DNA from: Candidatus Bathyarchaeia archaeon
GTDB lineage: Archaea > Thermoproteota > Bathyarchaeia > Bathyarchaeales > Bathycorpusculaceae
Length of the DNA: 64,000 nt
Assembly (NCBI GenBank): GCA_037481775.1
Contig: JBBFKZ010000008.1
Coordinates: 1-64,000 of the forward strand
Reading direction: 5' to 3'
This document shows positions 35,783-51,469 of this stretch, one piece after another; the first letter of the stretch is position 1; each line of letters starts with the position of its first letter. The notes under the pieces are model-generated. The model searched no databases, was not told where the DNA came from, and worked only from the letters and a program-made list of their open reading frames with translations. The position numbers and the translations under genes are program-made.

Positions 35783-35795
35783 ATATAAATCTTGG

Positions 35796-35822
35796 TTCAA
35801 CTAAAATTTAATACAGGTTGAA
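35796..35822. promoter_or_regulatory. 27-bp upstream element copy A
   Basis: TTCAAC-taaaatttaatacag-GTTGAA, 6 nt from TATAAA at 35784-35789. Confidence 0.7.
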
Positions 35823-35916
35823 TACATAAAAGGGGGATAACAAAACCACGAAATAAGCCATAAAAAGTAAAAAAGGAAAATGCGTCCTTTACAACAATAG
35901 AGCCATTCAGAGTTGC

Positions 35917-37098
35917 TTATGGATACGTGAACACTCCAGTTAACTCAGCATTGAAGAACCTTTGTATGTACTCCGCATGTATCGCAGCAGGATCAATGTC
36001 TTGGAACAAATTTGGATGTAGCCACTTTGCGAAGTATAGCAAACCAATTACGTCACGATCAACCAACAGCACGCTTTTAATCACATAGACAGTACCGTTC
36101 TTCACAGCTTTTGTTTCGCTTAGCTCTGGCCTAGCTAATATGCTGTTTCTCAAAGTTTGCAAAGACGCTAAATCTTCACCATCCAAGTATGTGGACATCC
36201 GAATAACAATAGCAGGGTTAGCCTCGGCCACGAATTCTGCGCTCAACTGTGGACTGGAGGTACTGGCATTTTCAGCTATATTTATTCCACCAGCATCAAC
36301 TATCAGTTTATCGTAAGAACCACCTGGACCCGTGCTGAACCAGAGCTTGTACCATTCGAAGTAGACTAACGGTTTCTCGCTTCGTGAAAGAGCGGCAACT
36401 CGATTTTTAACCAGATTCACATAATACGTTTCGTAGTTTATGAACTCCGTTGCTTTCTGCTCTGCTTGCAATATCAAGGCTAAATTGCGTATGCACTCAT
36501 ATCTTCGGCTGCCTGTCAAGGTATCCTCCATAACGGCTATTCCCGCATCTTCTAGTTTCTTTCGGTTTTCATCGGTTAAGCGTTGGCTAGCAAGAACCAA
36601 ATCAGGCTTTAACTCAACTATCAGTTCAAGATTCGGTTCCATGTCAGTGCCTACGTCAGGTAATTCCAAAATTGACTTGGGCAGGATTGCTTCAGCGTCT
36701 GAGCTTAATGAAGCACTCCGCGCTACGACTTTGTCGCCTGCACCTAACACATGCACAATCTCTATCATAGTAAGACAAATAATGCGTTTCACAGGAACAG
36801 CTACGGTAACATTGGCGCCATTCGCGTCAACCACAGTGATGTTCGAGATCTGTGGTGCTTCCGGTGATTGGGTAGCGTTTGGTTCAATTGTTGGCGAAGG
36901 CGAGGGCGTTGGCGTAGCCGTAGAAGATGGTGTCTGCGAAGGCGTAGGAGAAGCACTGGTTGGGGATTGGATAGGAGATTGTGAAGGAGTTGGTGTTGGC
37001 GATGTTGATGGCGATTGCGATAGGATGTTGTAGCCGCCGTAAACCGAAGCCGCAACTACAACAGCAACAATAGCAGCCACAAGAATAACACGCCTCAA
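35917..37098 (-). CDS. BtuF/FepB-like substrate-binding protein 2
   Basis: Paralog of SBP1: TM anchor, P/S/T linker, PNLELIVELKPD, AGGINIA, AKWLHP, ends FTYP. Confidence 0.88.
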   Translation of the reverse strand: MRRVILVAAIVAVVVAASVYGGYNILSQSPSTSPTPTPSQSPIQSPTSASPTPSQTPSSTATPTPSPSPTIEPNATQSPEAPQISNITVVDANGANVTVAVPVKRIICLTMIEIVHVLGAGDKVVARSASLSSDAEAILPKSILELPDVGTDMEPNLELIVELKPDLVLASQRLTDENRKKLEDAGIAVMEDTLTGSRRYECIRNLALILQAEQKATEFINYETYYVNLVKNRVAALSRSEKPLVYFEWYKLWFSTGPGGSYDKLIVDAGGINIAENASTSSPQLSAEFVAEANPAIVIRMSTYLDGEDLASLQTLRNSILARPELSETKAVKNGTVYVIKSVLLVDRDVIGLLYFAKWLHPNLFQDIDPAAIHAEYIQRFFNAELTGVFTYP

Positions 37099-37188
37099 AA
37101 ACTATTCACCTCCTCATTATTGGTTATTGAAACTTTGTAAATCAAACAGATTGCTGTAATTTGCCAATGTTTGCGCGGCAACATGCTT

Positions 37189-37205
37189 GGATGGATTATC
37201 CATAG
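37189..37205. promoter_or_regulatory. 17-bp palindromic operator copy B (SBP2)
   Basis: GGATGGATTATCCATAG, 5 nt from TATAAA at 37211-37216. Confidence 0.75.
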
Positions 37206-37222
37206 TTTTATATAAACATTAG

Positions 37223-37249
37223 TCAAACTTGAGTTAAGATGAGGTTGAA
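37223..37249. promoter_or_regulatory. 27-bp upstream element copy B
   Basis: TCAAAC-ttgagttaagatgag-GTTGAA, 6 nt from TATAAA. Confidence 0.7.
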
Positions 37250-37386
37250 TAACCTAATCTACAAGCCTATATCGTTAAAAACGAACATGAGGAGCTTATT
37301 TAGCAGGTATACAAAGGAAAACAACTTTTATAGGAATTATAATGAAACTGAAAAGAACAGATGAGGCAAAGGCCGGGGTGTGTTAA

Positions 37387-37794
37387 ATGAGTGGAGAGAT
37401 GAGGGCATCGCTGTTTGCAAAATGCGGAATAAACTGCCGAACATGCGTTGGTTTTTTCGGCTATAAATTGAATGGCGAAAGAACAAATCCATGCGGCGGC
37501 TGCCAAACAAGGCAGGAAAAATGCACGTTCTTTAAAAAGCACTGCAAAAATCAAGCAAACAGAGAAAAAATCGAATATTGCTTTGAATGTGATGACTTTC
37601 CATGCGCTGAACTGAAGAAAATTGATGCATACTATAATCAGAAATATGGAACGAGTTTAATTGAGAATTTTATGTATATAAAAATAAACGGCTGGGAAAA
37701 ATTTCTGGAAGGGGAAGCAGAAAAATGGGAATGCCCGCGTTGTGGCGGCGTAATCTGCTCGCAAACAAAAAGATGTTACACATGTAATCCTTAA
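37387..37794 (+). CDS. DUF3795-like Cys-rich protein
   Basis: CGINCRTC, CGGC, YCFECDDFPC, WECPRCGGVIC...CYTC. Confidence 0.75.
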   Translation: MSGEMRASLFAKCGINCRTCVGFFGYKLNGERTNPCGGCQTRQEKCTFFKKHCKNQANREKIEYCFECDDFPCAELKKIDAYYNQKYGTSLIENFMYIKINGWEKFLEGEAEKWECPRCGGVICSQTKRCYTCNP

Positions 37795-37863
37795 AAGGGG
37801 CAAGATTTCAGGCGGATCAAGGCATTACTTAAAAATATAAAATATGAGAATGGGGTAGATTTT

Positions 37864-38388
37864 TTAATGCATGAATGTCGCGCGGGGGTTTTGTCCCAAA
37901 ATTTGTGCAACCGCTCGCAAACTTAGCGTGTCGCAAATCTTCTCCACGATCTGAACAGATTCCTCATCAGGTCCTGCTACAGCACCGCGCACTATGTAAG
38001 GGAAAAAGCCCTCATCATATGCAGCAAGATAAGTTGCTAGAACACAGTTCAGGGCGCTAAGCCCTATGAGAATTACAGTATCGCAGCCTTTATCCCGAAT
38101 CATATGGGCTAACGCCGTCTTGACAAAAGCGTTTTGATGAGTCTTAATAACTTTGGCATCTTCAGCCATCGCGGTTAAACTTGGGATAAGTTCAAACTCT
38201 TTTGTCCCGGGCACAATACCTCGCTCGGCATAGGAATGGTAAGTAAAGATGATCGGGGCGCACGCTTTTCGAAATATTGAGATCGCTTCGCTCATTGCAG
38301 TTATGCGCTCAGTCACTGATCGTTTCAGTCCTTCAGACAGTTCTAGCCAGCCATTCTGAACATCAATCACAATCAACGCCGGTTTCAT
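37864..38388 (-). CDS. Isochorismatase-like cysteine hydrolase
   Basis: ALIVIDVQN, KTHQNAF, GLSALNCV (D-K-C triad). Confidence 0.85.
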   Translation of the reverse strand: MKPALIVIDVQNGWLELSEGLKRSVTERITAMSEAISIFRKACAPIIFTYHSYAERGIVPGTKEFELIPSLTAMAEDAKVIKTHQNAFVKTALAHMIRDKGCDTVILIGLSALNCVLATYLAAYDEGFFPYIVRGAVAGPDEESVQIVEKICDTLSLRAVAQILGQNPRATFMH

Positions 38389-38451
38389 AGTAATGCGCTC
38401 CTATTGTGGTTATGCTTTATTCCCCTGATGTCGCTCATAAAGGAGTACTCA

Positions 38452-41400
38452 TCATTTCTTTTCATTGGTGCTTTCAAGCAAACCATCAACCTGCAAATAA
38501 ATCTGTTGTAGCTGCCTTTTCATATCCTCTGAGGCGTGCCACATGCCCCGTTCAATAGCTTCTAAAAGGCGTTCAGTCATGTTGTATAATGCGTAAGGAT
38601 TCACTTCTTTCAGCCACTCCTGCATTGATTTATCAAGGACAAATTTTTGCGCTAATTCCTCATACATCCAGTCTTCTATGACTTCTTCTGTTGCATCCCA
38701 TCCTAGCACGTAATCCATCTGTCGGGAAAACTCGGCGGCTCCATGGTAGCCATGTCTTTTCATGCTTTCAATCCACTTAGGATTAACGAGGCGGGCTCTG
38801 AAGCAATACTTAATCTCTTCAGCGGTACTTCTAATTTTAACTCTTTTGGGATCAGAAGTGTCCCCATAAAACGAGCGCGGCGCTTTCCCAGTAATCGTCT
38901 TGATGGCTACATCCATGCCGGCGTGATAAGAATAAGCATCGTCTATCTGTAAAGCGTCATATTCACGTTGATCCCAATTTTTTACGGTCAGTTCAACTTT
39001 GCTTAATCGTTTCTTAAACAAGTCAGGCGCTGTTAACCCAAAGTTTTTTCTGCCATAAACATAGCAACCCCAAGTGACATAAATATTTGCCAAATCCTTC
39101 TGGTCTTTCCAGTTTTTGGAATCTATCGCTTCATTAACGCCTGACCCGTAACCACCGGGTATATCGCCGAAGATTCTGTAGCATGCTTCTTCACGCGCCT
39201 TAACAGCATCGACGCCCTGCCCAATACGTTCAGCTATTTCCTCCTCCACATGTTTTATGATGTAGTTTTTGTCAGAAGTTTCTTTTAGTTCAGCAACTAA
39301 AGCAACGGCTTCGTCAATAAGATGAACAATGTTAGGGAAGGTATCTCTGAAAAGGCCACTTATTCGGACAGTAACGTCAATTCTCGGCCGCTTCAGTACT
39401 TCAAGCGGAATAGGTTCTAAGCCTATAACCCTACCGCTGGATTCTTCCCAGATTGGCTTAACGCCCATTAAATAGAGAATTTCAGCTATATCGTCGCCGT
39501 TTGTTCTCATGCAATCAGTGGCCCAAACAACAATAGCAACTGTTTCTGGATACTTCCCCTCTTCTTCCAGATACCGTTTTAGTAAGGCGTCGCCTAGTTC
39601 TACGCCAACCTTCCAAGCGGCAACAGAGGGCACACAACGGGGGTCTATTGAGTAAAAGTTGCGTCCGGTAGGCAAGATGTCGGCGTTACCGCGTGTTGGA
39701 GCACCAGAAGGCCCTGTTGGTACATAATTACCGTGACATGCAGATGTAGTGTTAGTTAGCTCTTCGGTTGTTGCATTCAATGCAGGAGCAAGAAAATTGG
39801 AAATATAAGATAGACAGTGCCGCAACTTGGCATTAACCTCGCCGAACAGTTCATAAAGCAAAGAATCAATTTTTTCTTCTTTGAAATTTACAGCATGGAA
39901 TCGGTTTATTAGTTCAAGTGCAAGTTGGTTCAACTCGTCAAGAACATCGCCATTAGTTCGGTTATCTTGACGCAGAGCACCGCGATTTGCCAGCAACTCT
40001 TCATAGTTGTAACCTTTCAATTCAGCCAATGACTGACGTAAAGAGGGAACACTGCCATTATCTAGCCGCGTCAATGCTACCAAAAACTCTTCTAGCCTCG
40101 AGTCCGTGGGAGGCTCGCCTAGCACATGTAATCCGTCTGTGATCTGCGCGTCAGATAATTCATTCAAATAGCCATGCAGCTGCTCTACAAAGGCATCAAA
40201 ATCCGCGAACGCCTCTTCTTTAGTGACTTCTAAATCGCTGTTGAGGTTAGCTTGAACTACGGCGTCCCAGATTAACTTCTTAAGAATTTCAAGTTTTCCA
40301 GGGTCAGCAGTTTTGGCATGATAATACTCTTTCAGTTGAACACAGATTTTAGCTAAATCATCATAGGAGTCAGCGTTATGCATTACTGGAATTAGATAAT
40401 CAACTAAACAGGCGTAACTCCGTCTTTTCGCGCATGTACCCTCGCCTGGATCGTCGATAAGATATGGGTAAACGTTGGGCAAATCGGAAATAACAATGTC
40501 AGGAAAACATGAAGCGGAAAGCCCAACAGATTTACCCGGCAGCCATTCCATTGTGCCATGTTTGCCAAAATGAATGATAACGTCAGCTTTGAAAACTTCC
40601 CGAATCCAACGATAATAAGCATAATAATGATGTGGGGGAGGAAGATCGGGGCTATGATAAATAGATGCAGGGTCAGTTGTGTAGCCTCGAGGAGGCTGGA
40701 GACCGATGAATACGTTACCATTAATTATTCCAGGAATTAATAGGTCGCCTTTGTAATTGAAAAGTTTCCCAGGTGGCTTCCCCCAATGCTTAACCAGTTT
40801 CTCTTTGACATCTACAGGCAACTCATCAAACCATTTAATGTACTGAGCAAGGGGGATTTTAGCCACAGCTTTTTCTGCAAGTTCATCAGGACTTAACCAT
40901 CTTTGATCATTAGTTAACCCGCTAATTATTTTTTCCATCAATTTCTGGCCGTTTTCAGGTAAAAACTCCAGTGAATAGCCTTGTTTCTGCATTTCTCGCA
41001 AGAGGTTTATAGCTGAAGCTGCAGCATCGAGTCCTGCAGCGCTACCAATATTGTCATTTCTTGGTGGATAGTTATGAAAAATCAGTGCAACCTTCTTTTT
41101 CTCGTTAGGAATATATCGCAGTTTTGCCCAGTTAATGCTTAATCTGACAAGCTTGTCAAGACGCTCAGGAATTATTACATGCGAGGTTATTTTTGCGCCG
41201 GTCACCGGATCTTTTTCAGAGATCTTTCTAGCGGCTATTGGCACAGTGATTACCATACCATCAAACTCAGGCATTGCAACATTCCATGCTACTTCAGTAA
41301 AACTTAATCCCAGTAGACTACTACACCACTCCTCAAAAGTGTTATATGTTACAATCGACTTGAGAACGGGAACCCCAAACATCTTAAAAAGCTCGTTAAC

Positions 41401-42195
41401 CGATTCGGAGCTTGGCATGAACGCTGCAACAGAATGTGCAAGTGTGCTGATGACAATGTCAACAATAGGTTTTCCGTCCTTCATGAAGTAGTTTTCGATA
41501 ATCCACTTCAAACTTTTAGCTGAAACATCATTCGCTGAGAAAAACACTAAAATTGCATTCGCGCCGTGCTGTTCGATAGAGCGGATTAGACTGTTGGCGA
41601 GGTTAATGTCGCCCGTTTTTAAAGGGTCGTTATGGAAAAAAATTCCAACTGTGGGTCTTCCACGAACGTATACTTTTTCCATGTATTCAGCTAATGTGCA
41701 GATATGACCAAAGTTTGGGTGATATATTGCTTGCAATGGCATCTTTTTTGGCGGCTTAGCCTCGAAATGGCTTCCCGCGAAACGGTTTGCTAAAAAAAGC
41801 AGCAGGTTTTCATAGTTTTCTATTCCACCATAATTGATGTATTGATGGATCTTTTGATAATCATCTTGGTTAACAGTGGAGCAAGCGACGATTTCTGGGT
41901 CAGATTGGACATCCGACGCGAACAAAGGCACATGTGCATCGCGCAACGCGGCTATAACGCGATCAAAGCCTGTGAACCCTTTTTTGCCACCCATTAAATG
42001 CAGGAGTGTTACGTGAGATGTTCGCGCAAAATTGATGAATGCATCCAGCAGTTTTGGGTCTGCTAAGTCTTCTGCAGTTCGTGGAAAAACATCTATAAGC
42101 ATACCCGTCTTTTTAGCGAGGGTCTTAACTGCTAGGGTAATAATTTCTACTTCATGTGAAAGAACCACAAAAGCAAGTCTCATTTTTTGCTTCAC
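38452..42195 (-). CDS. cobN: CobN/ChlH family chelatase large subunit (paralog 2)
   Basis: MPEFDG, NYPP, HFGKHGTMEWLPGK, PSGAPTRG, LPTGRNFY, NPKWIESMKRHGY; clearly paralogous to 26851..30606. Confidence 0.9.
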   Translation of the reverse strand: MKQKMRLAFVVLSHEVEIITLAVKTLAKKTGMLIDVFPRTAEDLADPKLLDAFINFARTSHVTLLHLMGGKKGFTGFDRVIAALRDAHVPLFASDVQSDPEIVACSTVNQDDYQKIHQYINYGGIENYENLLLFLANRFAGSHFEAKPPKKMPLQAIYHPNFGHICTLAEYMEKVYVRGRPTVGIFFHNDPLKTGDINLANSLIRSIEQHGANAILVFFSANDVSAKSLKWIIENYFMKDGKPIVDIVISTLAHSVAAFMPSSESVNELFKMFGVPVLKSIVTYNTFEEWCSSLLGLSFTEVAWNVAMPEFDGMVITVPIAARKISEKDPVTGAKITSHVIIPERLDKLVRLSINWAKLRYIPNEKKKVALIFHNYPPRNDNIGSAAGLDAAASAINLLREMQKQGYSLEFLPENGQKLMEKIISGLTNDQRWLSPDELAEKAVAKIPLAQYIKWFDELPVDVKEKLVKHWGKPPGKLFNYKGDLLIPGIINGNVFIGLQPPRGYTTDPASIYHSPDLPPPHHYYAYYRWIREVFKADVIIHFGKHGTMEWLPGKSVGLSASCFPDIVISDLPNVYPYLIDDPGEGTCAKRRSYACLVDYLIPVMHNADSYDDLAKICVQLKEYYHAKTADPGKLEILKKLIWDAVVQANLNSDLEVTKEEAFADFDAFVEQLHGYLNELSDAQITDGLHVLGEPPTDSRLEEFLVALTRLDNGSVPSLRQSLAELKGYNYEELLANRGALRQDNRTNGDVLDELNQLALELINRFHAVNFKEEKIDSLLYELFGEVNAKLRHCLSYISNFLAPALNATTEELTNTTSACHGNYVPTGPSGAPTRGNADILPTGRNFYSIDPRCVPSVAAWKVGVELGDALLKRYLEEEGKYPETVAIVVWATDCMRTNGDDIAEILYLMGVKPIWEESSGRVIGLEPIPLEVLKRPRIDVTVRISGLFRDTFPNIVHLIDEAVALVAELKETSDKNYIIKHVEEEIAERIGQGVDAVKAREEACYRIFGDIPGGYGSGVNEAIDSKNWKDQKDLANIYVTWGCYVYGRKNFGLTAPDLFKKRLSKVELTVKNWDQREYDALQIDDAYSYHAGMDVAIKTITGKAPRSFYGDTSDPKRVKIRSTAEEIKYCFRARLVNPKWIESMKRHGYHGAAEFSRQMDYVLGWDATEEVIEDWMYEELAQKFVLDKSMQEWLKEVNPYALYNMTERLLEAIERGMWHASEDMKRQLQQIYLQVDGLLESTNEKK

Positions 42196-42268
42196 CGTCT
42201 ATTCAATACTTCATAAAAAAGGAAGAGGAACCATGGCGACTTGTGCCAGTATCATTTGCTGCAAAACG

Positions 42269-43408
42269 TTATGGATAGGCATATGTGCCCTCCAAGGCAA
42301 CTCCGAAGAAAGTTTGAATCATTTCCCTGTGTATAGCAGTTGGATCTACATCTGCAAAAAGATCAGGATGGAGCCATTTGGCTAAGGTCAGCAAGCCAAG
42401 GGGGTTGCGTGTTCCTGTTCGGAAGTAATGATCCATAACATAGACCTTACCATTTTGGACAGCCTTTGTAGCACTGAGAGCAGGTCTGTTCATTAGCTCC
42501 TCACGCATAGCTTGAAAATCTTTGATGTCGTGAGTTGCACTGCTAATCATGCGGACTATTATGTCGGGGTTGCGCTCCGTAACATACTCAGGACTCAAGG
42601 TTGGATAGGTAACAGTCTGGTTGGCAGCGAGATTTATTCCACCAGCATCGATTATCATCTGATGGGGTAAACTAGCGTTATTGCAACTATACCAAGCTTT
42701 AACCCATTCGTAATATACTAAGGGCTTTTGATCATCTTTCAGATCTTTGACACGATCCTTAACAAGATCAGTTATGCCGTCCATAAATTTGATCAGGGCA
42801 TCAGCCCTTTCCTCTTTACCGAGGATTTCGCCTAGATAAGTTATTATAGGCTTTACACGGTCCGTTTGGGAAGGATTATCAATGATTACAGGAACATGGA
42901 GAAGCGATTCGATTTCAGCGCGGGTATCATTGTTAATTCTAGTATCGGCAACTATCAAATCAGGTCGCATTTCCGTTAAGGTTTCCATGCTTAAACCGCT
43001 TGATCCGTAAACTACTGTCAGGTTTAAAACAGAATCTGGAAAAGTAGAATAAAGGTCACGCCCAACTATTTTATCGCCGGCGCCTATAGCATAGATTATT
43101 TCTGTAAAACCACTTTGTAAGCTTACAATACGGGTCACAGGAAGGGCAATAGTTACTTGAGTCCCCGTGACATCCACAACAGTAATTGTCTTGTTTTGTG
43201 GTGTTGGTTGAGTTTCTGTAGGAGCTGGCGTGCTTGTTGTTGAAGGAGAAGCAGTACTCGAGGGCGAGGGAGAAACAACTGGACTTGACGAAGGCGATGT
43301 TGACGGTGACGAAGGCTGTGGCGAATAGAGGAAGATGTATCCACCATAGACAGAAGCGATAACAATAACTGCAACAAGAATTGAAACTATAAGCCCTGTT
43401 CGTTTCAA
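42269..43408 (-). CDS. BtuF/FepB-like substrate-binding protein 3
   Basis: Paralog of SBP1/2: TM anchor, P/S/T linker, [30 protein letters not shown], ends YAYP. Confidence 0.88.
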   Translation of the reverse strand: MKRTGLIVSILVAVIVIASVYGGYIFLYSPQPSSPSTSPSSSPVVSPSPSSTASPSTTSTPAPTETQPTPQNKTITVVDVTGTQVTIALPVTRIVSLQSGFTEIIYAIGAGDKIVGRDLYSTFPDSVLNLTVVYGSSGLSMETLTEMRPDLIVADTRINNDTRAEIESLLHVPVIIDNPSQTDRVKPIITYLGEILGKEERADALIKFMDGITDLVKDRVKDLKDDQKPLVYYEWVKAWYSCNNASLPHQMIIDAGGINLAANQTVTYPTLSPEYVTERNPDIIVRMISSATHDIKDFQAMREELMNRPALSATKAVQNGKVYVMDHYFRTGTRNPLGLLTLAKWLHPDLFADVDPTAIHREMIQTFFGVALEGTYAYP

Positions 43409-43506
43409 GCGTGCTCACCTTCGTCGTTTATTATTTTAAATTGGTTCGTGATTGCGGGTATGATGTAGTGAGTGGGTTGTTGTTTCATGTTTACCGCCTT
43501 ATTCAT

Positions 43507-43523
43507 GGATGGATTATCCATGC
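43507..43523. promoter_or_regulatory. 17-bp palindromic operator copy C (SBP3-cobN2)
   Basis: GGATGGATTATCCATGC, 5 nt from TATAAA at 43529-43534. Confidence 0.75.
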
Positions 43524-43540
43524 ACATATATAAATTTTGT

Positions 43541-43567
43541 TTAAACTCAAGTTAAAATAAAGTTGAA
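43541..43567. promoter_or_regulatory. 27-bp upstream element copy C
   Basis: TTAAAC-tcaagttaaaataaa-GTTGAA, 6 nt from TATAAA. Confidence 0.7.
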
Positions 43568-43621
43568 CAATTCATGGAGTCAAAAAAATCCAGAGTTGTC
43601 AAAAATTACGCGAGATATCTG

Positions 43622-44506
43622 CTAATCGGAGCAGAAAATTGTGCTTAATTTTTCCATGTTAGCGAACAATGCGCAGTGACCGCAACACTCAAAAATTTCT
43701 AAACGTGCACCAGGAACCTTCGCGGAGAGCCTATAGGCATTCTCAAGCCGGCACGTCTTATCTTCGGCGCCATGCCAAACAAACAGTTTGCCCGCGGGAA
43801 CCCGTGAAACTGGTATATCCCAAGGCTTCATGAAAAGCTTATGCTCCTGAAGCACGGCTTTAACACCATAATTGCCCTGGCGGAAAGCTTCAGCCATAGA
43901 TTGACACAGCACCGCAGTCCAGGCGGGGTTAGAGAAAAATTTCAAATCATCCTTCGAGTAGCCACGCAGCAGTCGCTGGCCTTCTCTTGAAGCCAAGAAA
44001 GCCTCAACGTTATGGTTAGCTTTCAGCACTTGAGAACGCAGGTTTCTTATGGCCAATAACCCTAAAAGCGGGAGCTTCATAGCAAAACGGGCAAGAAGCG
44101 TATTATGCGCCGTCGCCACATCGAAAGGCAAAGCAGGTGCGCCGGCGACAACTGCGCGTGTTACGCGTTCGGGAAATAGCAAAAGGTAGGCAAGCGCGAA
44201 AACTCCGCCGCCAGACCAGCCGAGAACGCCAAATTGTTTAAAACCCAATTGGTCAGCGAGGAAGTTGAGGTCGCTGTTGAAGTCGCAGAGGCTTTTTACA
44301 GGTTTGAACGTGGATAAGCCGTAGCCGGGTCTGTCTACACCAATTATCTGCAGTTTCGCCTGGGAGACAAGCTCTTTCAAGAGCAGAATTTCCAGTCGGC
44401 TACTTGCTGTGCCATGGAAGTAGATGACTGGTCGTCCGTCGCCGATTGTTAGGTACCCAAGTTTTCGTCCGTCAGGTAAAGATAACGTCTGTCCAGCCAA
44501 ATGCAC
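43622..44506 (-). CDS. Alpha/beta fold hydrolase
   Basis: FHGTASSR, DRPGYGLS, GWSGGG, WHGAED, GH. Confidence 0.88.
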   Translation of the reverse strand: MHLAGQTLSLPDGRKLGYLTIGDGRPVIYFHGTASSRLEILLLKELVSQAKLQIIGVDRPGYGLSTFKPVKSLCDFNSDLNFLADQLGFKQFGVLGWSGGGVFALAYLLLFPERVTRAVVAGAPALPFDVATAHNTLLARFAMKLPLLGLLAIRNLRSQVLKANHNVEAFLASREGQRLLRGYSKDDLKFFSNPAWTAVLCQSMAEAFRQGNYGVKAVLQEHKLFMKPWDIPVSRVPAGKLFVWHGAEDKTCRLENAYRLSAKVPGARLEIFECCGHCALFANMEKLSTIFCSD

Positions 44507-44612
44507 TTACATCTCTGCTTCGCGCATGTAAATATGCAAATGCATAGGGCACAGCGCAAATATTAGCGTTTAGATGACGCCGCCGCCATGCGCGTGGTAA
44601 GCGCTTGAGAGA

Positions 44613-45452
44613 TTAAAGGGCTCGCACATCTTTAACTTCATACGTTATCTGTGCTGTTCGTTTAGTGTTTTCTATGTCTATTTTCTCGATTACATGATTA
44701 ACCATTCTGCCGACAACAAGTACGAAAACTTTGAGCCCTCTTGAAGCGGCAACTGCTGTTGCTCTGCTTATGCCGAATTCAAAGTCTGCTTTAAGCCCCA
44801 TCTTGTTTAGAACAGCTCTTCCAACAACGCCTATAACGCCGATTCGATCAGGATTGAATTCCTCATACACCTTTCTAACTTTGGCGATGTTAACGGCTCT
44901 TGAGCCGCCTTCCTTTATGCTGGGCAGTTTAATGAGGAGAACTCTGCCCGGCGATATTTTCACTTTGCCCTGTACATCTTTTAAGCCAACGTCTTCTCCG
45001 GCGTTTGCATCGTTAATAGCAATTCCGAAGGCTTCAACGTTTGGACTGGATAAAGCCACGGCGCATAAAACTCCATTTTTCATGACTAAGCCGACTTTAG
45101 CGCCGGCTTTTATTGGCTGCGTCGCCATGGCGGGGATAAAGTGTTCAACTTTTAGATCCGTCTTGATCAGATTAACATAGCTGTCTAGGTTCTTTTGGTA
45201 GTCTTGAAGTTTCTCTTTGGCTTTGGCCGTTAGCCTGTAATCTGCACGCTCCGAACCTGCTTCTAGCAAGCCCTCCTTCATTAAGGTCTTAAAGTGCTTG
45301 GAGACGGCTTGGATGGTGATGCCAAGCGCTTCGCTTATGTCCTTCTGTCTTACGTGTGGTTGATGCCGCATAATTTCTAATAAGATTTGGAAGTTGGTGA
45401 ATTCGCCTTTGTCACGTAAGAGAAGCGGATGACGTCGAGGCAACTGAATCAA
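44613..45452 (-). CDS. Winged helix-turn-helix (MarR-like) transcriptional regulator with C-terminal putative ligand-binding region
   Basis: QKDISEALGITIQAVSKHFKTLMKEGLL HTH plus YRLT wing; divergent from cbiM. Confidence 0.82.
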   Translation of the reverse strand: MIQLPRRHPLLLRDKGEFTNFQILLEIMRHQPHVRQKDISEALGITIQAVSKHFKTLMKEGLLEAGSERADYRLTAKAKEKLQDYQKNLDSYVNLIKTDLKVEHFIPAMATQPIKAGAKVGLVMKNGVLCAVALSSPNVEAFGIAINDANAGEDVGLKDVQGKVKISPGRVLLIKLPSIKEGGSRAVNIAKVRKVYEEFNPDRIGVIGVVGRAVLNKMGLKADFEFGISRATAVAASRGLKVFVLVVGRMVNHVIEKIDIENTKRTAQITYEVKDVRAL

Positions 45453-45474
45453 CCTGACTTAAACTTTAGTTTAA
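45448..45474. promoter_or_regulatory. 27-bp upstream element copy D (cbiM promoter; overlaps the regulator start codon)
   Basis: ATCAAC-ctgacttaaacttta-GTTTAA, 6 nt before TTTATA at 45481. Confidence 0.7.
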
Positions 45475-45480
45475 CAAACA

Positions 45481-45488
45481 TTTATAAA
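45481..45488. promoter_or_regulatory. Self-complementary TATA box TTTATAAA between the divergent regulator and cbiM
   Basis: Only TATA-like element in the 74-nt intergenic region; reads the same on both strands. Confidence 0.6.
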
Positions 45489-45493
45489 GTTTC

Positions 45494-45510
45494 GGATGGC
45501 TTATCCAATC
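45494..45510. promoter_or_regulatory. 17-bp palindromic operator copy D (cbiMNQO)
   Basis: GGATGGCTTATCCAATC between the TATA box and the RBS (GGTGA) of cbiM. Confidence 0.65.
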
Positions 45511-45526
45511 CGGAAAGGGTGAGAAT

Positions 45527-46216
45527 ATGCACATAATGGAAGGCTTCCTGCCCCACCCATGGTGGGAAATATGGTTTGCAATTTCAATTGTAGTCGTAAT
45601 TTTTGGTGTTTACAAGCTCAAGAAACTCACAGAAAAATTTCCCGAAGCTAAACCGCTTCTCGCGGTGATGGGCGCATTTGTTTTTGTGCTTTCAGCACTT
45701 AAGCTTCCATCTGTAACAGGCAGCTGCTCACATCCAACAGGCTCAGGATTGGCGGCTGTAGTGCTCGGGCCGGCAATCGCTTCAGTTCTTTCGGCGATAG
45801 TCCTGCTTTTCCAAGCTTTGCTGCTCGCGCATGGTGGTTTAACCACGCTTGGTGCAAACATATTCTCAATGGGAATAGTAGGACCAGTGGTAGGCTATGT
45901 CTTGTGGGTGGCCAGCAAAAAAGTGCGGCTACCAACATCAGTGGGAGTATTCATAGCAGTTGCCTTAGCTGATTTAAGCACCTACGTTACCACATCTGTA
46001 CAGCTTGCGCTTGCTTTCCCCTCAACAAGCGTCATGGACTCGTTCATAACTTTTGGGTCAATCTTCGCCATAACACAGATTCCATTAGCCATCGGTGAAG
46101 GAATATTGGCAATTTTCCTTTTCGATTTCTTAGTGAAGTACAAAGGAAGACTCCTTAACGCAATGAACGTGATCGGCCTACGTGCTGACATACAATCTTC
46201 GGAGGGTAAAGAATAG
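45527..46216 (+). CDS. cbiM: ECF cobalt transporter substrate-specific component CbiM
   Basis: MHIMEGFLP N-terminus, LKLPSVTGSCSHPTG, LLAHGGLTTLGAN, TQIPLAIGEG. Confidence 0.95.
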   Translation: MHIMEGFLPHPWWEIWFAISIVVVIFGVYKLKKLTEKFPEAKPLLAVMGAFVFVLSALKLPSVTGSCSHPTGSGLAAVVLGPAIASVLSAIVLLFQALLLAHGGLTTLGANIFSMGIVGPVVGYVLWVASKKVRLPTSVGVFIAVALADLSTYVTTSVQLALAFPSTSVMDSFITFGSIFAITQIPLAIGEGILAIFLFDFLVKYKGRLLNAMNVIGLRADIQSSEGKE

Positions 46217-46492
46217 ATGCAGACGAAGATCAAGTACGCCATTTTAATAGTGATAATGTTGGCACTCTTCATTACACCTTTGATGATGCATCCTTCCGCG
46301 GAGTTTGGCGGTGCAGACAGCGCTGCGGAAGAAGCCATAAGCGAGCAAGGTTACGAGCCTTGGTTCACGCCTATATGGGAGCCGCCAAGCGGCGAAATAG
46401 AAAGCCTATTGTTTGCAGTTCAAGCAGCAATAGGTGCCATCATAATCGGCTATTTTATCGGATATGAAAAGGGGAAAAGAACAAAAGAATAA
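46217..46492 (+). CDS. cbiN: Cobalt transport protein CbiN
   Basis: FGGADSAAEEAI, YEPWFTPIWEPPSGEIESLLFAVQAAIG. Confidence 0.95.
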   Translation: MQTKIKYAILIVIMLALFITPLMMHPSAEFGGADSAAEEAISEQGYEPWFTPIWEPPSGEIESLLFAVQAAIGAIIIGYFIGYEKGKRTKE

Positions 46493-46522
46493 GTGACACA
46501 TACACGAAGATACTGAGCTGTA

Positions 46523-47320
46523 ATGAGCCACTTTAATTTATCAGCGGAAATTGACAGATACGCGTATACAAATTCCTTATCAAAGAATAGCCCAATAACT
46601 AAACTTCTCCTCGCACTTTCATTGCTGTTCATAAGCGTCTTATCGCCGTCCCCAGTGGTGCCCATAGCCGTATTTTTAACAAGCAGCAGCATGATTTTAT
46701 TCTGCGCAAAAATCCCATGGCGCTTCTATCTTAGGCTACTGTGGTACCCAACTGTAATTGTTGCATTAACCTGCGTCATAATTGCGCTCTTTTTCGGCTA
46801 CAAAGAACCGCTTGCAGAGGTAAATCTGCTTGGGTTCAAATGGATCATTTTCAGAGATGGCGTAGCTACAGGAGTCACCACGTTCTTTAGAGTGGCAGGG
46901 GCGCTTTCAAGCCAGTTTTTCCTTGTTCTAACAACGCCAATGACAAGCATATTGATAGTTCTCAGAAAAGCCCGTATCCCCAAGATCATAGTGGAAATGT
47001 CATTACTTATCTACAGGTATATATTTGTCTTCATAGAGGTCATGGAAACCATGCACACCGCTCAAGAGCTACGCCTCGGATATTCGGGTTGGCTGAGGAA
47101 ACTTCGATCAACCGCCATGCTTATTGGAAATCTTTTCATACGAACGTTAGAGCAGGGAGAGCGCACCTTCATCGCCATGAGCGCCAGAGGATACGACGGC
47201 AACATCCGCGTTCTTGAAGACCTGCCGAGGCCAAGCTACGCCGCCTTATTGGGAATCACGCTTTTCGCTGTCGCGCTTGCAATAACTGCATATTTAACAA
47301 TGCACATCGGGATTGTGTAA
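46523..47320 (+). CDS. cbiQ: ECF cobalt transporter T component CbiQ
   Basis: IDRYAY, LTTPM, LIYRYIFV, AQELRLGY, AMSARGYDG. Confidence 0.92.
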   Translation: MSHFNLSAEIDRYAYTNSLSKNSPITKLLLALSLLFISVLSPSPVVPIAVFLTSSSMILFCAKIPWRFYLRLLWYPTVIVALTCVIIALFFGYKEPLAEVNLLGFKWIIFRDGVATGVTTFFRVAGALSSQFFLVLTTPMTSILIVLRKARIPKIIVEMSLLIYRYIFVFIEVMETMHTAQELRLGYSGWLRKLRSTAMLIGNLFIRTLEQGERTFIAMSARGYDGNIRVLEDLPRPSYAALLGITLFAVALAITAYLTMHIGIV

Positions 47321-47325
47321 TCAAA

Positions 47326-48189
47326 ATGCTGTTCAGATTAGAAAATCTGTCCCACAAGTACTCCGATGGCACACTTGCGCTGGATAACATATCATTAAGT
47401 TTTGCTAAGGGAGAAAGAATAGCCCTTCTTGGACCGAACGGTTCCGGAAAAACTACGCTACTACTGCATCTGAATGGAATCCTGAAGCCAACGGCTGGCA
47501 GAATCTACTTTGAAGATAAACCGCTGGAATACTCGCCTAAAGCTTTGCTTGAGCTTAGAAGACGCGTGGGCTTCGTATTCCAAGACCCTAATGATCAACT
47601 GTTCGCGCCGACTGTAAAGCAGGACGTGGCCTTTGGACCGCTAAATCTGGGTCAACCCGCTGGCCAAGTGAAGAAGGTTGCTGATGAAGCTCTGAAGCTT
47701 GTAGGTATGAGCGAGTACGCGGATAAACCACCACATTTCCTCAGCTTAGGGCAGAAGAAGCGGGTTGCGCTTGCTGGAGTTCTTGCCATGAAGCCTGAAG
47801 TTGTAATTATGGATGAGCCAACTTCGAATCTGGATCCACGCGGCACCAGCGAGATATTGCATTTGCTTCTGCGGCTTAACAAAGAGCTGGGACTAACGTT
47901 GATACTGGCTACGCATGACGTGGACATGGTGCCCTTGTTTGCAAGTAAACTATACATATTGAATAAGGGAAAACTCGTGTCGGAGGGCGCGCCCGCGGAA
48001 TTGTTTTCAGATGCAGAATTAATCCGAAGCGTAAACCTGCGCTCTCCACGGATAACGCATCTATTTGAAGTGCTGAAGAAGGAGGACAAGTTGCCGATAA
48101 ACCCGCGGCTTCCACTTACCATAAGCGAAGCAAGAAAAGAAATATTGAGACTTCTAGAATCTAAAAAGCAGAAGAGGACTGAAACATGA
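47326..48189 (+). CDS. cbiO: ECF cobalt transporter ATPase CbiO
   Basis: GPNGSGKTT, FQDPNDQLFAPTV, LSLGQKKRVALAG, DEPTSNLDP. Confidence 0.93.
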   Translation: MLFRLENLSHKYSDGTLALDNISLSFAKGERIALLGPNGSGKTTLLLHLNGILKPTAGRIYFEDKPLEYSPKALLELRRRVGFVFQDPNDQLFAPTVKQDVAFGPLNLGQPAGQVKKVADEALKLVGMSEYADKPPHFLSLGQKKRVALAGVLAMKPEVVIMDEPTSNLDPRGTSEILHLLLRLNKELGLTLILATHDVDMVPLFASKLYILNKGKLVSEGAPAELFSDAELIRSVNLRSPRITHLFEVLKKEDKLPINPRLPLTISEARKEILRLLESKKQKRTET

Positions 48190-48893
48190 GCGGCATCTTT
48201 GATCCAGCGCTAATTGGTGTTGTCTCCATAGGATTGCTGCATGGGTTAGAGCCGGGGCACGGTTGGCCCATAGCGCTGCTTTATTCGACACGGACTTCGA
48301 AGCCAACCTTCTACGCCCTTGTCAGCTCAAGCATAATTTCATTCTTTCACTTTATCTCCTCAATTGCCGTTGTCATAATCTACGTTGCCGCTAGCGCGCT
48401 GATAAACTTCACAAGCCCACTTCTAAAATACATTGCATTTGCCGCTTTGGTGCTGCTTGCAGCCAAATTTTTCATGGAAAAAGTTGATTCGGAACTGGAA
48501 AATCAGCACGGGCATTTACATGATAACGTGGAAGACATGGAACATGAACACGAACATGAGCATCCAGGCATTGGCTGGCACACGCACCCGCATTTCCATC
48601 CAAAACGGATGAATAATCTGAGTTTATGGAAAATAGCGAGTTGCGCGTTTTTCCTAGGCTTTGCCCATGAAGAAGAATTTGCGCTTCTGGCTTTAGCTAT
48701 GGGCGGTGTTAACCCGCTTTTTATGATGACGGCTTATGGATTGGCGGTAACCGCAGGGCTTGTGGGCGTCACCATTCTTGGAATAAAAATGTATGGAAGG
48801 GTTAGAGCAAGAATCAGCAGATATGAGAGATATTTCCCAAAGGTTAGCGGCACAGTGCTTCTTGTACTGGCGTTTTGGCTACTTTTTGGCTAG
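48186..48893 (+). CDS. His-rich nickel/cobalt transporter (NiCoT/RcnA-like)
   Basis: GLLHGLEPGHGWP (HxxxPGH motif), central HGHLHD...HEHEHEHP..WHTHPHFH loop, about 6 TM helices; ATGA-coupled to cbiO. Confidence 0.75.
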   Translation: MSGIFDPALIGVVSIGLLHGLEPGHGWPIALLYSTRTSKPTFYALVSSSIISFFHFISSIAVVIIYVAASALINFTSPLLKYIAFAALVLLAAKFFMEKVDSELENQHGHLHDNVEDMEHEHEHEHPGIGWHTHPHFHPKRMNNLSLWKIASCAFFLGFAHEEEFALLALAMGGVNPLFMMTAYGLAVTAGLVGVTILGIKMYGRVRARISRYERYFPKVSGTVLLVLAFWLLFG

Positions 48894-48895: not shown

Positions 48896-49723
48896 CTAAT
48901 GCAGGCGGTATCCACGGGGCGTGACCATTCTTTCATTGACGATTCTAGTGGTGGAGTTGCCCACGATTATTGCTGTAGCCATGTCTATCTCATGTTCGAG
49001 CATGCTTCCGAGCGTAGTGATGACCACTTTTTCGCCGTCTCGTCCAACCGCCTTAACAATGCCAACAGGGGTCTCCTGGCTTCTGTATTTAAGTAGGATT
49101 TGATGCGCTTTCGCTAAAGGTTCTTTACGGCCTTGACTTTGGGGATTATATAGCACAATCACAAAATCAGCTTCCGCCGCAGCGTTCAACCTTTTTTCGA
49201 TAAGCTGCCAAGGAGTCAGAAGGTCGCTGAGGCTTATTACGGCGAAATCGCCAACCAAAGGCGCTCCAAGCGCGGCCGCTGCCGCTGTTGCCGCTGTTAC
49301 TCCTGGAATAATTTCTATGGGAACAGCTGCTTTTTCATTGGCTGCAACTTCCAAAACCACGCCAGCCATGCCATAAACCCCTGGATCGCCACTGCTAATC
49401 ACGGCTACCCGCTTGTTTTCCAACGCCTTAGCCACAGCCACTCTCGCTCTCTCAACTTCTTGTCCCATACCTCCCGAGATAACCTCGATGGCGCTTGTGA
49501 TTACTGGCTGGATTAGTTTTATGTAGGTTTTATAGCCTATAATGACATCCGCGGCTTCTATCGCTTGCCTAGCTTTAGGTGTAAGGTGCTCAAGGCCGCC
49601 GGGTCCTATGCCGACTACGCTTATTCGCCCTCGGCTATGGCCACTGTTACACCATTCAGCTTCATTTTCTTTAGAATCAGTTTTGCTTTTGCTCCTGCTT
49701 CTATCAATGCTGCTCGTTCGCAT
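48896..49723 (-). CDS. cbiH: Cobalt-precorrin-3B C17-methyltransferase; start uncertain, possibly frameshifted fusion with cbiG
   Basis: VVGIGPG, SSGDPGVYGMAG, LGAPL..DFAVISLSDLLTPW, YNPQS, TPRGY. Confidence 0.9.
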   Translation of the reverse strand: MRTSSIDRSRSKSKTDSKENEAEWCNSGHSRGRISVVGIGPGGLEHLTPKARQAIEAADVIIGYKTYIKLIQPVITSAIEVISGGMGQEVERARVAVAKALENKRVAVISSGDPGVYGMAGVVLEVAANEKAAVPIEIIPGVTAATAAAAALGAPLVGDFAVISLSDLLTPWQLIEKRLNAAAEADFVIVLYNPQSQGRKEPLAKAHQILLKYRSQETPVGIVKAVGRDGEKVVITTLGSMLEHEIDMATAIIVGNSTTRIVNERMVTPRGYRLH

Positions 49724-50706
49724 ACTCCTCCAACACCAATTTTTTGTTCCACTAATGGCGAATCAGGTGAAAGATCTACATGTTTTAGAGCCCGAAGCGC
49801 CTCAATTTCCAAGAAAGCAACGGACAACCCTAATTTTTTAGCAGCGCCTAGAATAGCTGCTGAATCCTTTTTTATGCTGACGGTGGCCAAGCGGTCAACA
49901 CGCTCCAGCGGAAGATCCACACGCGCCAAAGCGTATTTCACAGCTTCTACAACTTCATTTTCACTGACGTTTTCTCTTGCGCCTAAGCCCACAACCACCG
50001 TTTTAGGTTTAAGTATTGTAGCAGGCTTTGCCAACTGATCCTTAGGCACTTTCTCTCTTGTGATGAGTGCGCCTGCATCGAAGTCATTCAAGATTTCTAT
50101 GGCTTTCTTGATGCTGTCCGCTTGTTTTATTTCATAACCTGAAATTTTGTTTTCTGGAATTTTTACGTCGCCGACCAAAACAAGAGCCAGTCGGCTGTCG
50201 TTCACCAGCGCGGCGTTTACTGCTGTGAGGCTCTCAGGGTTCTCTATGGATAAATGAAGAGTTAGGGCAAGTTCTTCGATGCTTTGTTTTCCCATTACAT
50301 CGGATGCGGTAGTGATGACTGGCACTGCATCTATCCCCTCAGCAAGCAGTCTTGCAAGTTCGTTAGCTCTTCCGTAATGTCCAGAAAGCAGGCTGATGAC
50401 GAAACGGCCGGAAGCATCAACACATAAAACCGCAGGGTCAACCAGCTTGCTCTCGAGGTATGGCGCAACTGCCCGGATGATTATTCCCGTAGCCATGACT
50501 GCTATTATGGCGTCGACTTTGCGGTAAATTTCCTTGATGAACTCGTCAAGTTTCTTATCCAGCGAGGATACGCCGGCCTGGAGGTATTTTTCTGGCGCAA
50601 ACACCTTGCAAGGTAAACCTAACGCATCCAGTGCGGCTTTGATTTTAAGTGCAGTTTCTACGCCGCGGCGCGTGATCGCGATGACAGCTATACCTCGCTC
50701 AAACAT
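49621..50706 (-). CDS. cbiG: Cobalt-precorrin-5A hydrolase
   Basis: MATGIIIR, DPAVLCVD, SLLSGHYGRAN, PVITTASD, GVCERAAL, GVTVAIA. Start placed at ATG 50706. Confidence 0.9.
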   Translation of the reverse strand: MFERGIAVIAITRRGVETALKIKAALDALGLPCKVFAPEKYLQAGVSSLDKKLDEFIKEIYRKVDAIIAVMATGIIIRAVAPYLESKLVDPAVLCVDASGRFVISLLSGHYGRANELARLLAEGIDAVPVITTASDVMGKQSIEELALTLHLSIENPESLTAVNAALVNDSRLALVLVGDVKIPENKISGYEIKQADSIKKAIEILNDFDAGALITREKVPKDQLAKPATILKPKTVVVGLGARENVSENEVVEAVKYALARVDLPLERVDRLATVSIKKDSAAILGAAKKLGLSVAFLEIEALRALKHVDLSPDSPLVEQKIGVGGVCERAALIEAGAKAKLILKKMKLNGVTVAIAEGE

Positions 50707-51469
50707 CTTTAACGCCTTTTCTAAAGCCCGTTGTGAAAGAAGGCTCATAGAGCTTGGAGAAATCGAAAGCTTCAGGGTTTAATACGCGTCCCACGAAGAT
50801 CAGAGCCGTCTTAGTTATTCCAGCAGCCCGAACTTTCTCAACTATGTCGCCTAAGGTGCCCTTAACGATCTTCTGATCAGGCCACGTAGCCTTGTACACT
50901 ACAGCAGCAGGCGTGTCTTCTGGGTATCCGCCTTTTTTGAGTTCTTCAACAACCTCGGCTATTTGCGGCGTGCCGAGAAAGATTACCATGGTAGCTTGAT
51001 GCCTCGCAAGTTTTCGTATGCTTTCAGACTTAGGCACGGGTGTTCTGCCTTCAGGACGCGTGATGATAACGGTTTGTGAAACATTAGGTAACGTCAACTC
51101 ACGCTTCAGACTCGCCGCGGAACCCTGTAAACAGCTTACACCTGGAATTATGGTGTAGGGGATCTGCTCTTTTTCGAGAAAAGCAATTTGCTCTTGAATG
51201 GCGCCGTAAAAGCTTGGATCGCCATCATGTACTCTGGCCACAAGCTTGCCTTCCCGGGCAGCTTTGGCGAATACTGCGAAAACTTCATCTCGGTGCATTT
51301 TGGCACTGTCGTATAGCTCCACGTTAGGCTTAGCGTACTTGAGAATTTCAGGGTTCAGAAGCGAGCCCGTGTATATGACAACATCAGCTTTTTCAAGCAT
51401 TTTCTTTCCTTTGATGGTTATAAGCTCAGGGTCGCCTGGGCCCGCGCCTATGAAGACAACTTGACTCAC
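50699..51469 (-). CDS. cbiF: Cobalt-precorrin-4 C11-methyltransferase
   Basis: FIGAGPGDPELITIKG, YTGSL, RVHDGDPSFYGAI, ELTLPNVSQTVIITR, YKATWPD, SKLY. Confidence 0.93.
   Translation of the reverse strand: MSQVVFIGAGPGDPELITIKGKKMLEKADVVIYTGSLLNPEILKYAKPNVELYDSAKMHRDEVFAVFAKAAREGKLVARVHDGDPSFYGAIQEQIAFLEKEQIPYTIIPGVSCLQGSAASLKRELTLPNVSQTVIITRPEGRTPVPKSESIRKLARHQATMVIFLGTPQIAEVVEELKKGGYPEDTPAAVVYKATWPDQKIVKGTLGDIVEKVRAAGITKTALIFVGRVLNPEAFDFSKLYEPSFTTGFRKGVKDV

Follow-up and report, generated by a model that had tools for sequence, protein, structure and literature searches.

The stretch of 64,000 nucleotides (nt) analysed here, called the window below, comes from a Candidatus Bathyarchaeia archaeon (GenBank assembly GCA_037481775.1, contig JBBFKZ010000008.1, positions 1 to 64,000) and represents a cobalamin gene island. 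Within it, a gene for a winged-helix protein (the regulator) and the cobalt uptake operon cbiM-cbiN-cbiQ-cbiO diverge from a short spacer holding two palindromes, termed P2 and P1, on either side of one TATA box. With slightly better than even confidence, we propose that this protein is a one-component transcription factor of a cobalt/corrinoid regulon, which would bind P2 as a dimer and repress its own gene; at its target promoters we lean towards corrinoid co-repression. We infer the site bound, the transcription starts, the ligand and the sign of control from the elements present, their recurrence and conservation, the gene linkage and the domain architecture of the protein.

Elements of the regulator-cbiM spacer

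The two genes and the elements between them are:

44613..45452, minus strand: regulator gene, an open reading frame (ORF) of 279 codons from TTG 45452, or 276 codons from the likelier TTG 45443
45448-45454, plus strand: box1, ATCAACC, a directly oriented third half-site that precedes the left P2 half by 11 bp
45459-45474, perfect palindrome: P2, TTAAAC-TTTA-GTTTAA, core of the 27-bp element and proposed operator of the regulator
45481-45488, self-complementary: TATA box TTTATAAA, with A/T-rich flanks resembling the B recognition element (BRE) on both sides
45493-45512, imperfect palindrome: P1, CGGATGGCTTATCCAATCCG, the '17-bp palindrome', with a matrix score of 21.5
45527..48893, plus strand: cobalt uptake operon cbiM-cbiN-cbiQ-cbiO (Pfam CbiM, CbiN, CbiQ, ABC_tran), divergent to the regulator gene

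Box1, which reads TTCAACC in most orthologues, is linked to P2 by TGAC; box1, TGAC and P2 together form the '27-bp element', a palindrome with a third half-site. No other place in the window fits the pattern of P2 without a mismatch. P1 has the core TGG-N5-CCA inside CGGAT-N10-ATCCG, and its orthologue consensus is GGCTGGATTATCCAAC. An earlier note on this DNA had placed a 27-bp element, a self-complementary TATA box and a 17-bp palindrome in a 74-nt spacer, and all three were indeed read there: box1 overlaps the regulator's TTG (45452-45450, minus strand), TTTATAAA equals its own reverse complement, and the 17-bp palindrome is present, though imperfect. The distance of 74 nt to the cbiM ATG at 45527 holds only for a regulator start at TTG 45452; if translation starts at TTG 45443, the spacer is 83 nt long.

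The start codon was surveyed in 80 sequences, L038 being skipped; 4 of the 80 had no composite site. In 70 of the 76 promoters with a composite site, GGTTGA is followed after 1-10 nt by an in-frame start, which is ~40-45 nt away from the TATA centre, and 46 of these 70 have no in-frame start further upstream. Most homologues begin three residues later than the window ORF, and the complement of box1, GGTTGAT, sits 5 nt before TTG 45443. Because of the conserved start position after GGTTGA and the homologue N-termini, TTG 45443 is the likelier start and the leader would be ~15 nt long. The regulator transcript is thus probably not leaderless, as it had been called in the earlier note.

Transcription starts were predicted from the usual archaeal spacing, in which the TATA box is centred near -27 relative to the start. 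This would put the cbiM start at ~45511, with a 16-nt leader that carries GGGTGAG, and the regulator start at ~45458. P1 would lie between TATA and the predicted cbiM start (about -18 to +2), the classical repressor position. On the regulator side P2 would cover about -16 to -1 and box1 about +2 to +8, and the 27-bp element is read between TATA and the start codon, a repressing position, as the earlier note had said. Seen from cbiM or another target gene, P2 lies upstream of TATA, with 6-7 bp between the two, and abuts the BRE. With TTTATAA and an A-rich BRE, the cbiM core promoter comes close to the consensus.

A symmetric TATA box that is flanked by BRE-like sequence on either side can be used in both directions, which agrees with the earlier idea of a single palindromic TATA for both genes, and we propose this shared BRE-TATA-BRE core as a two-way promoter. 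Excerpts of a study on Pyrococcus furiosus provide a precedent, in which one symmetric TATA, framed by BRE-like sequence on both sides, fires both ways to yield two transcripts with starts about 49-50 bp apart (PMC6640164), compared with ~53 bp predicted here. According to the same excerpts, the second transcript is mostly non-functional antisense RNA (PMC6640164), whereas here both directions would serve real genes. Unlike the P. furiosus promoters, the spacer has an own operator on each side, and its arrangement is conserved among orthologous loci (see below).

Recurrence of the promoter module

The ordered module of 27-bp element, TATA, P1 and gene is present in four copies in the window, including the cbiM copy. 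The three further copies, in the order box1, P2, 6 bp, TATA, few bp, P1 and gene, stand upstream of minus-strand units, and P1 occurs once more without P2:

35766..35822, minus strand: module A (box1 and P2 35795-35822, TATA ~35780-35789, P1 35766-35781), with a ChlI/D-type chelatase operon downstream
37189..37249, minus strand: module B (box1 and P2 37222-37249, TATA ~37206-37216, P1 37189-37204), with a BtuF-like gene downstream
43507..43567, minus strand: module C (box1 and P2 43540-43567, TATA ~43526-43535, P1 43507-43522), with a BtuF-like gene and the second CobN gene downstream
56978-56994, minus strand: fifth P1, GGATGGATAAACCGACC, without P2, between the TATA-like CTTATATTTAA (~56995-57005) and the hemA-cbi ATG 56977

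Box1 is thus also found in modules A-C, where no regulator gene is present. Weight matrices were trained on orthologous loci only (66 box1+P2 and 54 P1 instances), with the window excluded. At a score of at least 20 the box1+P2 matrix recovered exactly four window sites, the next best scoring 16.0, and at a score of at least 17 the P1 matrix recovered five; the fifth P1 gave 18.9 and 17.3. In 200 dinucleotide-preserving shuffles of the window the box1+P2 matrix produced 0 matches and the P1 matrix a mean of 0.12 (maximum 1). The recurrence, the matrices from which the window was left out and the shuffle results together place the module beyond chance.

Modules B and C share 74% identity across 70 nt, and the CobN and binding protein genes are paralogous. 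The modules could therefore be duplicates of strong promoters that moved together with paralogous genes and have no dedicated regulator. We regard this as hardly credible: it is motifs and not spacers that are conserved across 67 orthologous promoters, the regulators being 57-81% identical, and the palindromic structure, the fixed spacing and the empty shuffles likewise speak against it.

Two side observations concern these promoters. By its spacing, the hemA-cbiX/C-cbiD operon behind the fifth P1 would be leaderless. An ORF of 27 codons (43574-43657, plus strand) starts 7 nt after GGTTGA of module C and points away from the BtuF-like gene; a hydrolase gene on the opposite strand overlaps with it at the gene's 3' end, and the ORF may be due to chance.

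Conservation in orthologous loci of Bathyarchaeia

One scan of GTDB genomes, started from a 13-sequence alignment, yielded 80 loci, covering Bathyarchaeia-type orthologues alone. In 68 of them the regulator gene has a divergent cbiM no more than 400 nt away. In L038 cbiM is cut by the contig end. Other neighbours were ChlID-PBP-FecCD-BtuD (L057, L059), where PBP stands for a periplasmic-type binding protein, PBP-CobN (L071), PBP-FecCD-BtuD (L045) and CbiG/CbiH (L058, L069, L080). The probe set used named no adjacent neighbour in L014, L025, L078 and L079; in L025, cbiM is ~2 kb off.

Conservation was measured in 67 promoters anchored on box1/P2. Box1 was conserved at 0.87-1.00 (columns 2-7: 0.93-1.00), the P2 half-sites at 0.82-1.00 and TATA (columns 34-40) at 0.63-0.96. 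The three bases before TATA (columns 29-31, AAA) are A-rich (0.58-0.90), and the T-rich columns 44-45 past TATA are conserved as well, with a T (0.90) four bases after TATA. The spacing from P2 to TATA is 7 bp in 56 of 66 cases and 6 bp in 4; the other 6 are mis-registered members of the window's clade, with 6 bp by eye. P1 is less conserved, being exact in 16 of 69 sequences, and having at least 3 mismatches or not being found in 26 of 69.

Across 919,906 bases of orthologous loci the box1+P2 matrix gave 98 matches at a score of at least 20, some palindromes being counted on both strands. These precede cbiM, regulator, ChlID and BtuF-like genes and a few unnamed genes. Targets that carry P2 without a regulator gene are ChlID in L004, L052, L057, L059 and L080, and PBP in L004 and L073.

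Some loci deviate in their arrangement. Three genomes have two regulator paralogues (L057, L059 and L071 versus L060, L056 and L019), one of which is divergent to cbiM. The second heads a Reg-ChlID-PBP-FecCD-BtuD or Reg-PBP-CobN operon (Reg, regulator), with box1-P2-TATA aimed at the regulator and without P1; L059 and L071 contain two tandem P2 copies. In L052 (9842-9857) and L080 (9244-9259) an extra TATA-plus-P1 unit is located ~65 nt upstream of a full ChlI/D-type chelatase module, which suggests tandem promoters or a short upstream transcript.

Homologues in haloarchaea

Seven matches on haloarchaeal megaplasmids share 30-34% identity (~32%) with the regulator, and six annotated homologues were examined. 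Four of the six are divergent to cbiT-cbiL-...-cbiG operons. The recognition-helix motif T-x-Q-A-V-S is invariant between Bathyarchaeia and Halobacteria, and the four cbiT-regulator spacers share the palindrome ACAAT-TTTG-GTTGT, which has the AAY-N4-GTT core of P2; no P1-like motif was found in these four spacers. Together with the divergent cbiM in the bathyarchaeal loci, this independent linkage, from a second phylum, makes the earlier suggestion of a candidate archaeal cobalt/B12 regulator plausible.

Two haloarchaeal observations count against our proposal. The other two annotated homologues lie in unrelated surroundings, close to sulfur genes in one case and to an archaeosortase in the other, so that the family is not uniformly B12-linked. 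In 49 kb of a Halorussus lipolyticus plasmid, moreover, the sole intergenic palindrome is that of the regulator-cbiT spacer. The palindrome pattern had 4 matches in this stretch, the expectation being 1.51, and this number was reached in 15 of 100 shuffles; a haloarchaeal regulon is not supported by this count.

In two Halorussus species (L082, L084) a gene for a heavy-metal P-type ATPase follows the cbiT-divergent homologue on the homologue's own strand.

The candidate operator of the regulator

Twelve loci are not cbiM-divergent and lay outside the matrix training. In 9 of these 12, P2 with a score of at least 20 is found upstream of the regulator gene, and P1 with a score of at least 15 in 2. 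A conserved palindrome situated between TATA and the start codon in the regulator's own promoter thus travels with the gene. In addition, the six sequences with the recognition helix SKHFKTL (window and L001-L005) all have TTAAAC-N4-GTTTAA, and SKYFKKL-type helices go with TT(T/G)AAC-N4-GTTAAA. The change in the half-sites is symmetric, and P1 is identical in both helix groups. Four loci (L008, L040, L044, L055) lost P1 and kept P2 and the helix. Judged by these sequence comparisons, the 27-bp element (P2/box1) is a better candidate than P1 for the regulator's operator. The claim that the protein binds the 27-bp element gains comparative support in this way, from P2 following the gene and from the helix covariation; the binding itself is deduced.

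Several points weigh against this assignment. P1, and not P2, is common to all five B12-related promoters of the window, biosynthesis included, as would be expected of a master operator. In L010 and L072 (at cbiM) and in L045 (at PBP), P1 beside the regulator is strong and P2 degenerate. The covariation of helix and half-site concerns one clade and possibly one event, which limits its weight. The conservation of box1 may be partly translational, because GGTTGA sits at the position where a ribosome-binding site of the regulator would be expected.

These points, as far as they concern P1, would fit a protein that binds P1 as master repressor of all B12 promoters, with P2/box1 serving another factor or the regulator's own translation. 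P1 does stand in the classical repressor position, also at hemA-cbi where P2 is missing, and the regulator is the sole transcription factor found in the gene island: no second transcription-factor domain was detected in the 57 large window ORFs scanned, a 235-aa ORF after cbiO being a membrane protein. We nevertheless regard this reading as quite improbable, given that P1 rarely accompanies the gene in the twelve loci without adjacent cbiM, that its loss in four loci left the helix unchanged whereas the P2 half-sites changed together with the helix, and that the haloarchaeal spacers hold a P2-like palindrome and nothing like P1.

The four loci without P1 show C-rich sequence in its place. They also have ACG at the position of the cbiM ATG, with the next in-frame ATG three codons on; P2 and the recognition helix are unchanged.

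Domains, predicted dimer and proposed ligand class of the regulator

The regulator protein is built from the following parts:

residues ~15-75: winged helix (Pfam, AlphaFold2 model)
residues 76-99: long helix (AlphaFold2 model)
residues 104-176: six-stranded beta domain (AlphaFold2 model)
residues 177-279: alpha/beta DUF7839 domain (AlphaFold2 model; Pfam match over 166-262)

Over residues 19-71 the winged helix matches the Pfam families MarR_2, with 36.3 bits versus a cut-off of 27, and HTH_24, with 33.9 versus 21.9 bits, and DUF7839 (PF25211) reaches 65.3 bits versus a cut-off of 27. The AlphaFold2 model, made from 60 diverse sequences, has a predicted local distance difference test (pLDDT) score of 93.6. 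The family comprises 873 relatives at E up to 1e-3 in 90% clusters and 371 representatives in 50% clusters, mostly of 250-290 residues and with the same full-length architecture; neighbours in the Atlas were DUF7839 clusters of Methanobacteriota, Thermoplasmatota and Bathyarchaeota.

A sequence search of the PDB returned winged-helix matches alone, at E 0.035 or worse, and MarR-type structures dominate the top Foldseek matches of the whole model. For residues 100-279 (model pLDDT 95.8) Foldseek found nothing at E 1e-3 or better; the best match had E 8.6e-3, and TM-scores were at most 0.41 when normalised by the query, or 0.57 when normalised by the 113-residue target 3hh1. The sensor half, i.e. 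the beta-rich domain plus DUF7839, is without a solved structural relative. The structure prediction that the earlier note had proposed for the C-terminal domain accordingly gave a confident alpha/beta model, beyond a beta-rich middle domain, that has no solved relative. A weak Foldseek likeness of residues 100-279 to methylase subdomains (3hh1, E 0.028; 8xj3, E 0.039) was followed up by comparing the sensor with the five tetrapyrrole methylases of the window in hhalign; the probability was 1% and a relationship to these enzymes was discarded.

The predicted homodimer scored 0.68, and the best of three controls 0.00. Of the proteins solved as one-chain pairs 20 of 30 reach this mark, and of those solved as single chains 1 of 23; the calibration holds roughly here, as the prediction used a custom alignment. 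The runs agreed in at least 91% of contacts, with a partner pLDDT of at least 81. The interface is predicted within the C-terminal 180 residues and is formed by residues 152-156, 178-185, 208-213 and 224-238, which are the best-conserved motifs of the family. The model speaks for a dimer that would fit a palindromic operator, without proving it, and hints at a ligand site at the dimer interface.

Since the main partner of the regulator is the cobalt importer cbiMNQO, the protein might sense Co2+ or Ni2+ directly and be a metalloregulator instead of a corrinoid sensor. The heavy-metal P-type ATPase behind two haloarchaeal homologues would suit such a function, as would weak matches of the N-terminal domain to ArsR/SmtB, AdcR and MntR. 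All these profiles, however, remained below their cut-offs (HTH_metalloreg of NCBIfam, 21.5 bits versus 55; MntR, 18.4 versus 153; AdcR, 18.2 versus 175). Neither in 60 diverse members nor in the alignment of Bathyarchaeia plus haloarchaea is any sensor His or Cys invariant or nearly so, which argues against a classical Co/Ni site, and the regulon includes corrinoid uptake and CbiZ salvage. Bacterial cbiMNQO is, moreover, said to be typically under B12-riboswitch control, reportedly according to Rodionov in 2003. Direct metal sensing is unlikely in our estimation. We prefer a corrinoid over Co2+ because of the corrinoid uptake and salvage genes, the lack of conserved His/Cys in the sensor and the parallel to the bacterial B12 riboswitch. 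A canonical B12-binding domain was absent from the 10 Pfam matches of the regulator at E up to 0.01.

Proposed mechanism and sign of control

In the mechanism that we favour, a dimer joined via its sensor domains would bind P2 (TTAAAC-N4-GTTTAA), with contacts probably extending to box1. P2 ends 6 bp from the symmetric BRE-TATA-BRE core, which would fire in both directions. At its own promoter the protein on P2/box1 would block RNA polymerase, leading to negative autoregulation. At cbiM and the three other uptake and salvage promoters this site adjoins the BRE, and the protein would act there on transcription factor B (TFB) and the TATA-binding protein (TBP), with a corrinoid as co-repressor, making it a functional counterpart of the bacterial B12 riboswitch. 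That the 57 large ORFs scanned hold no further transcription-factor domain, and 33000-48000 no riboswitch, speaks in favour of this scheme. P1, between TATA and the start of each target and also at the hemA-cbi promoter, may mediate classical repression by a separate factor.

As the site borders on the BRE of a core close to consensus, recruitment of TFB and its occlusion would both fit at cbiM. Repression of the targets with a corrinoid co-repressor is slightly preferred, and activation by TFB recruitment is nearly as likely. We lean to repression on account of the near-consensus core and because vitamin regulators as a rule work by end-product co-repression.

In the earlier note the protein represses its own gene and activates cobalt/corrinoid uptake. 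Spelled out, this is a position-dependent dual regulator that would activate cbiM, along with the other targets, through recruitment of TFB/TBP from just upstream of the BRE. The spacer has the geometry given there, the distance from P2 to TATA is rigid, and P2 is kept at target promoters without a regulator gene, in the window as well as in the orthologues. Archaeal factors that bind upstream of BRE/TATA often activate, for example TrmBL1, SurR, TFB-RF1 and Ptr2. Activator-dependent archaeal promoters, in turn, usually have weak cores, whereas this one is near consensus, and the targets already carry P1 as an operator in repressor position. Thus, this full dual scheme seems somewhat unlikely to us, and a self-repressing regulator with corrinoid co-repression at its targets remains the reading that we prefer.

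Further genes of the window

The units behind modules A-C and the fifth P1 are:

35743 down to 26114, minus strand: operon headed by module A, with putative cobaltochelatase (ChlI/D type), BtuF-like, FecCD, ABC ATPase, CobN and CbiZ genes
35917-37098, minus strand: gene of a BtuF-like binding protein, start 37098, with module B upstream
42269-43408, minus strand: BtuF-like gene, start 43408, with module C upstream and followed by the second CobN gene
38452-42195, minus strand: second CobN gene, downstream of the BtuF-like gene 42269-43408
ATG 56977, minus strand: hemA-cbiX/C-cbiD... corrin biosynthesis operon, with P1 alone at its promoter

The putative ChlI/D-type cobaltochelatase matches TIGR02442 with 841.6 bits (cut-off 779.45). 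The membrane protein encoded after cbiO weakly resembles Ni/Co efflux transporters (NCBIfam PRK10019, 34.1 bits, below the cut-off of 195). A covariance search with Rfam over 33000-48000, at E up to 1, detected no cobalamin riboswitch and no other RNA family, except for one chance match inside a gene.

The CobN paralogues (26851-30654 and 38452-42195) share ~71-72% DNA identity over the compared stretches, and each is located downstream of BtuF-like genes. Alongside this CobN/ChlID set the island encodes an anaerobic-type CbiX chelatase. The ORFs of a CbiH-like methylase (48896-49723) and of CbiG (49621-50748), both on the minus strand, overlap by ~100 nt, probably because the methylase ORF is listed with too early an upstream start. 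At 14387-17663 there are genes for CheW, CheB and a methyl-accepting chemotaxis protein.

Relation to known systems and significance

To our knowledge, a transcription factor for the supply of cobalamin or cobalt has not been characterised in any archaeon, and cobalamin riboswitches, which have this task in bacteria, are not known from archaea. Archaeal one-component vitamin regulators are ThiR for thiamine and RbkR for riboflavin. Like the regulator described here, they fuse a helix-turn-helix to a ligand-binding domain, are encoded beside the biosynthesis or uptake genes that they control, have palindromic operators at BRE/TATA or between TATA and start, and fill the role that riboswitches play in bacteria. 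Their sensors derive from enzymes of the pathway (ThiN, riboflavin kinase), whereas the sensor found here is without solved relative and without similarity to the profiles of the window's tetrapyrrole methylases.

The bacterial cobalamin riboswitch regulon covers the same gene set, namely cbiMNQO, btuFCD-type uptake, CobN-type chelatase and salvage genes; unlike there, control is proposed here to act by protein and DNA and not by RNA. Rodionov et al. are said to have predicted, in 2003, a 'CBL-box' for a hypothetical archaeal B12 regulator. This signal, conserved in the DNA ahead of archaeal B12 genes, could be P1, P2 or neither, and the term was not found in the literature searched. CarH/LitR are transcription factors with corrinoid-dependent DNA binding, as is proposed here; unlike the regulator they are MerR-type light sensors with a canonical B12-binding domain. 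With MarR repressors the regulator shares a winged helix above the Pfam cut-off, the closest structures and a predicted dimer, here on a 16-bp palindrome. MarR proteins dimerise via helices flanking the winged helix and lack a separate sensor, in contrast to the C-terminal interface predicted here. AmzR was considered and rejected, as excerpts of its description point to an unrelated zipper-like family (10.1101/2025.05.05.652248). In the literature searched, DUF7839 is not mentioned and no archaeal cobalamin regulator was found, nor does one appear in the excerpts of PMC7689651, PMC8123684 and PMC8305020.

In a more far-reaching and only tentatively held version, DUF7839 winged-helix proteins would be the missing archaeal counterpart of the B12 riboswitch, a corrinoid-sensing family in Bathyarchaeia and Halobacteria with a new-fold ligand site at the dimer interface (GEDV, PSIxxGGSR, FGxxRA) and a two-way promoter with one operator per direction. 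Familiar in kind are the one-component winged-helix regulator and the two-way archaeal promoter; new are the sensor fold, the link to B12 and the two operators around one TATA box.

Altogether, the locus supplies a candidate protein family, two DNA sites with clear geometry and a set of target operons, and thereby a testable candidate for the control of B12 supply in archaea. A ligand-bound structure of the sensor would be new, as the sensor has no solved relative. Homologues beside cbi operons in cultured haloarchaea (Halobacteriales, an order with genetically tractable species) make the candidate directly testable.

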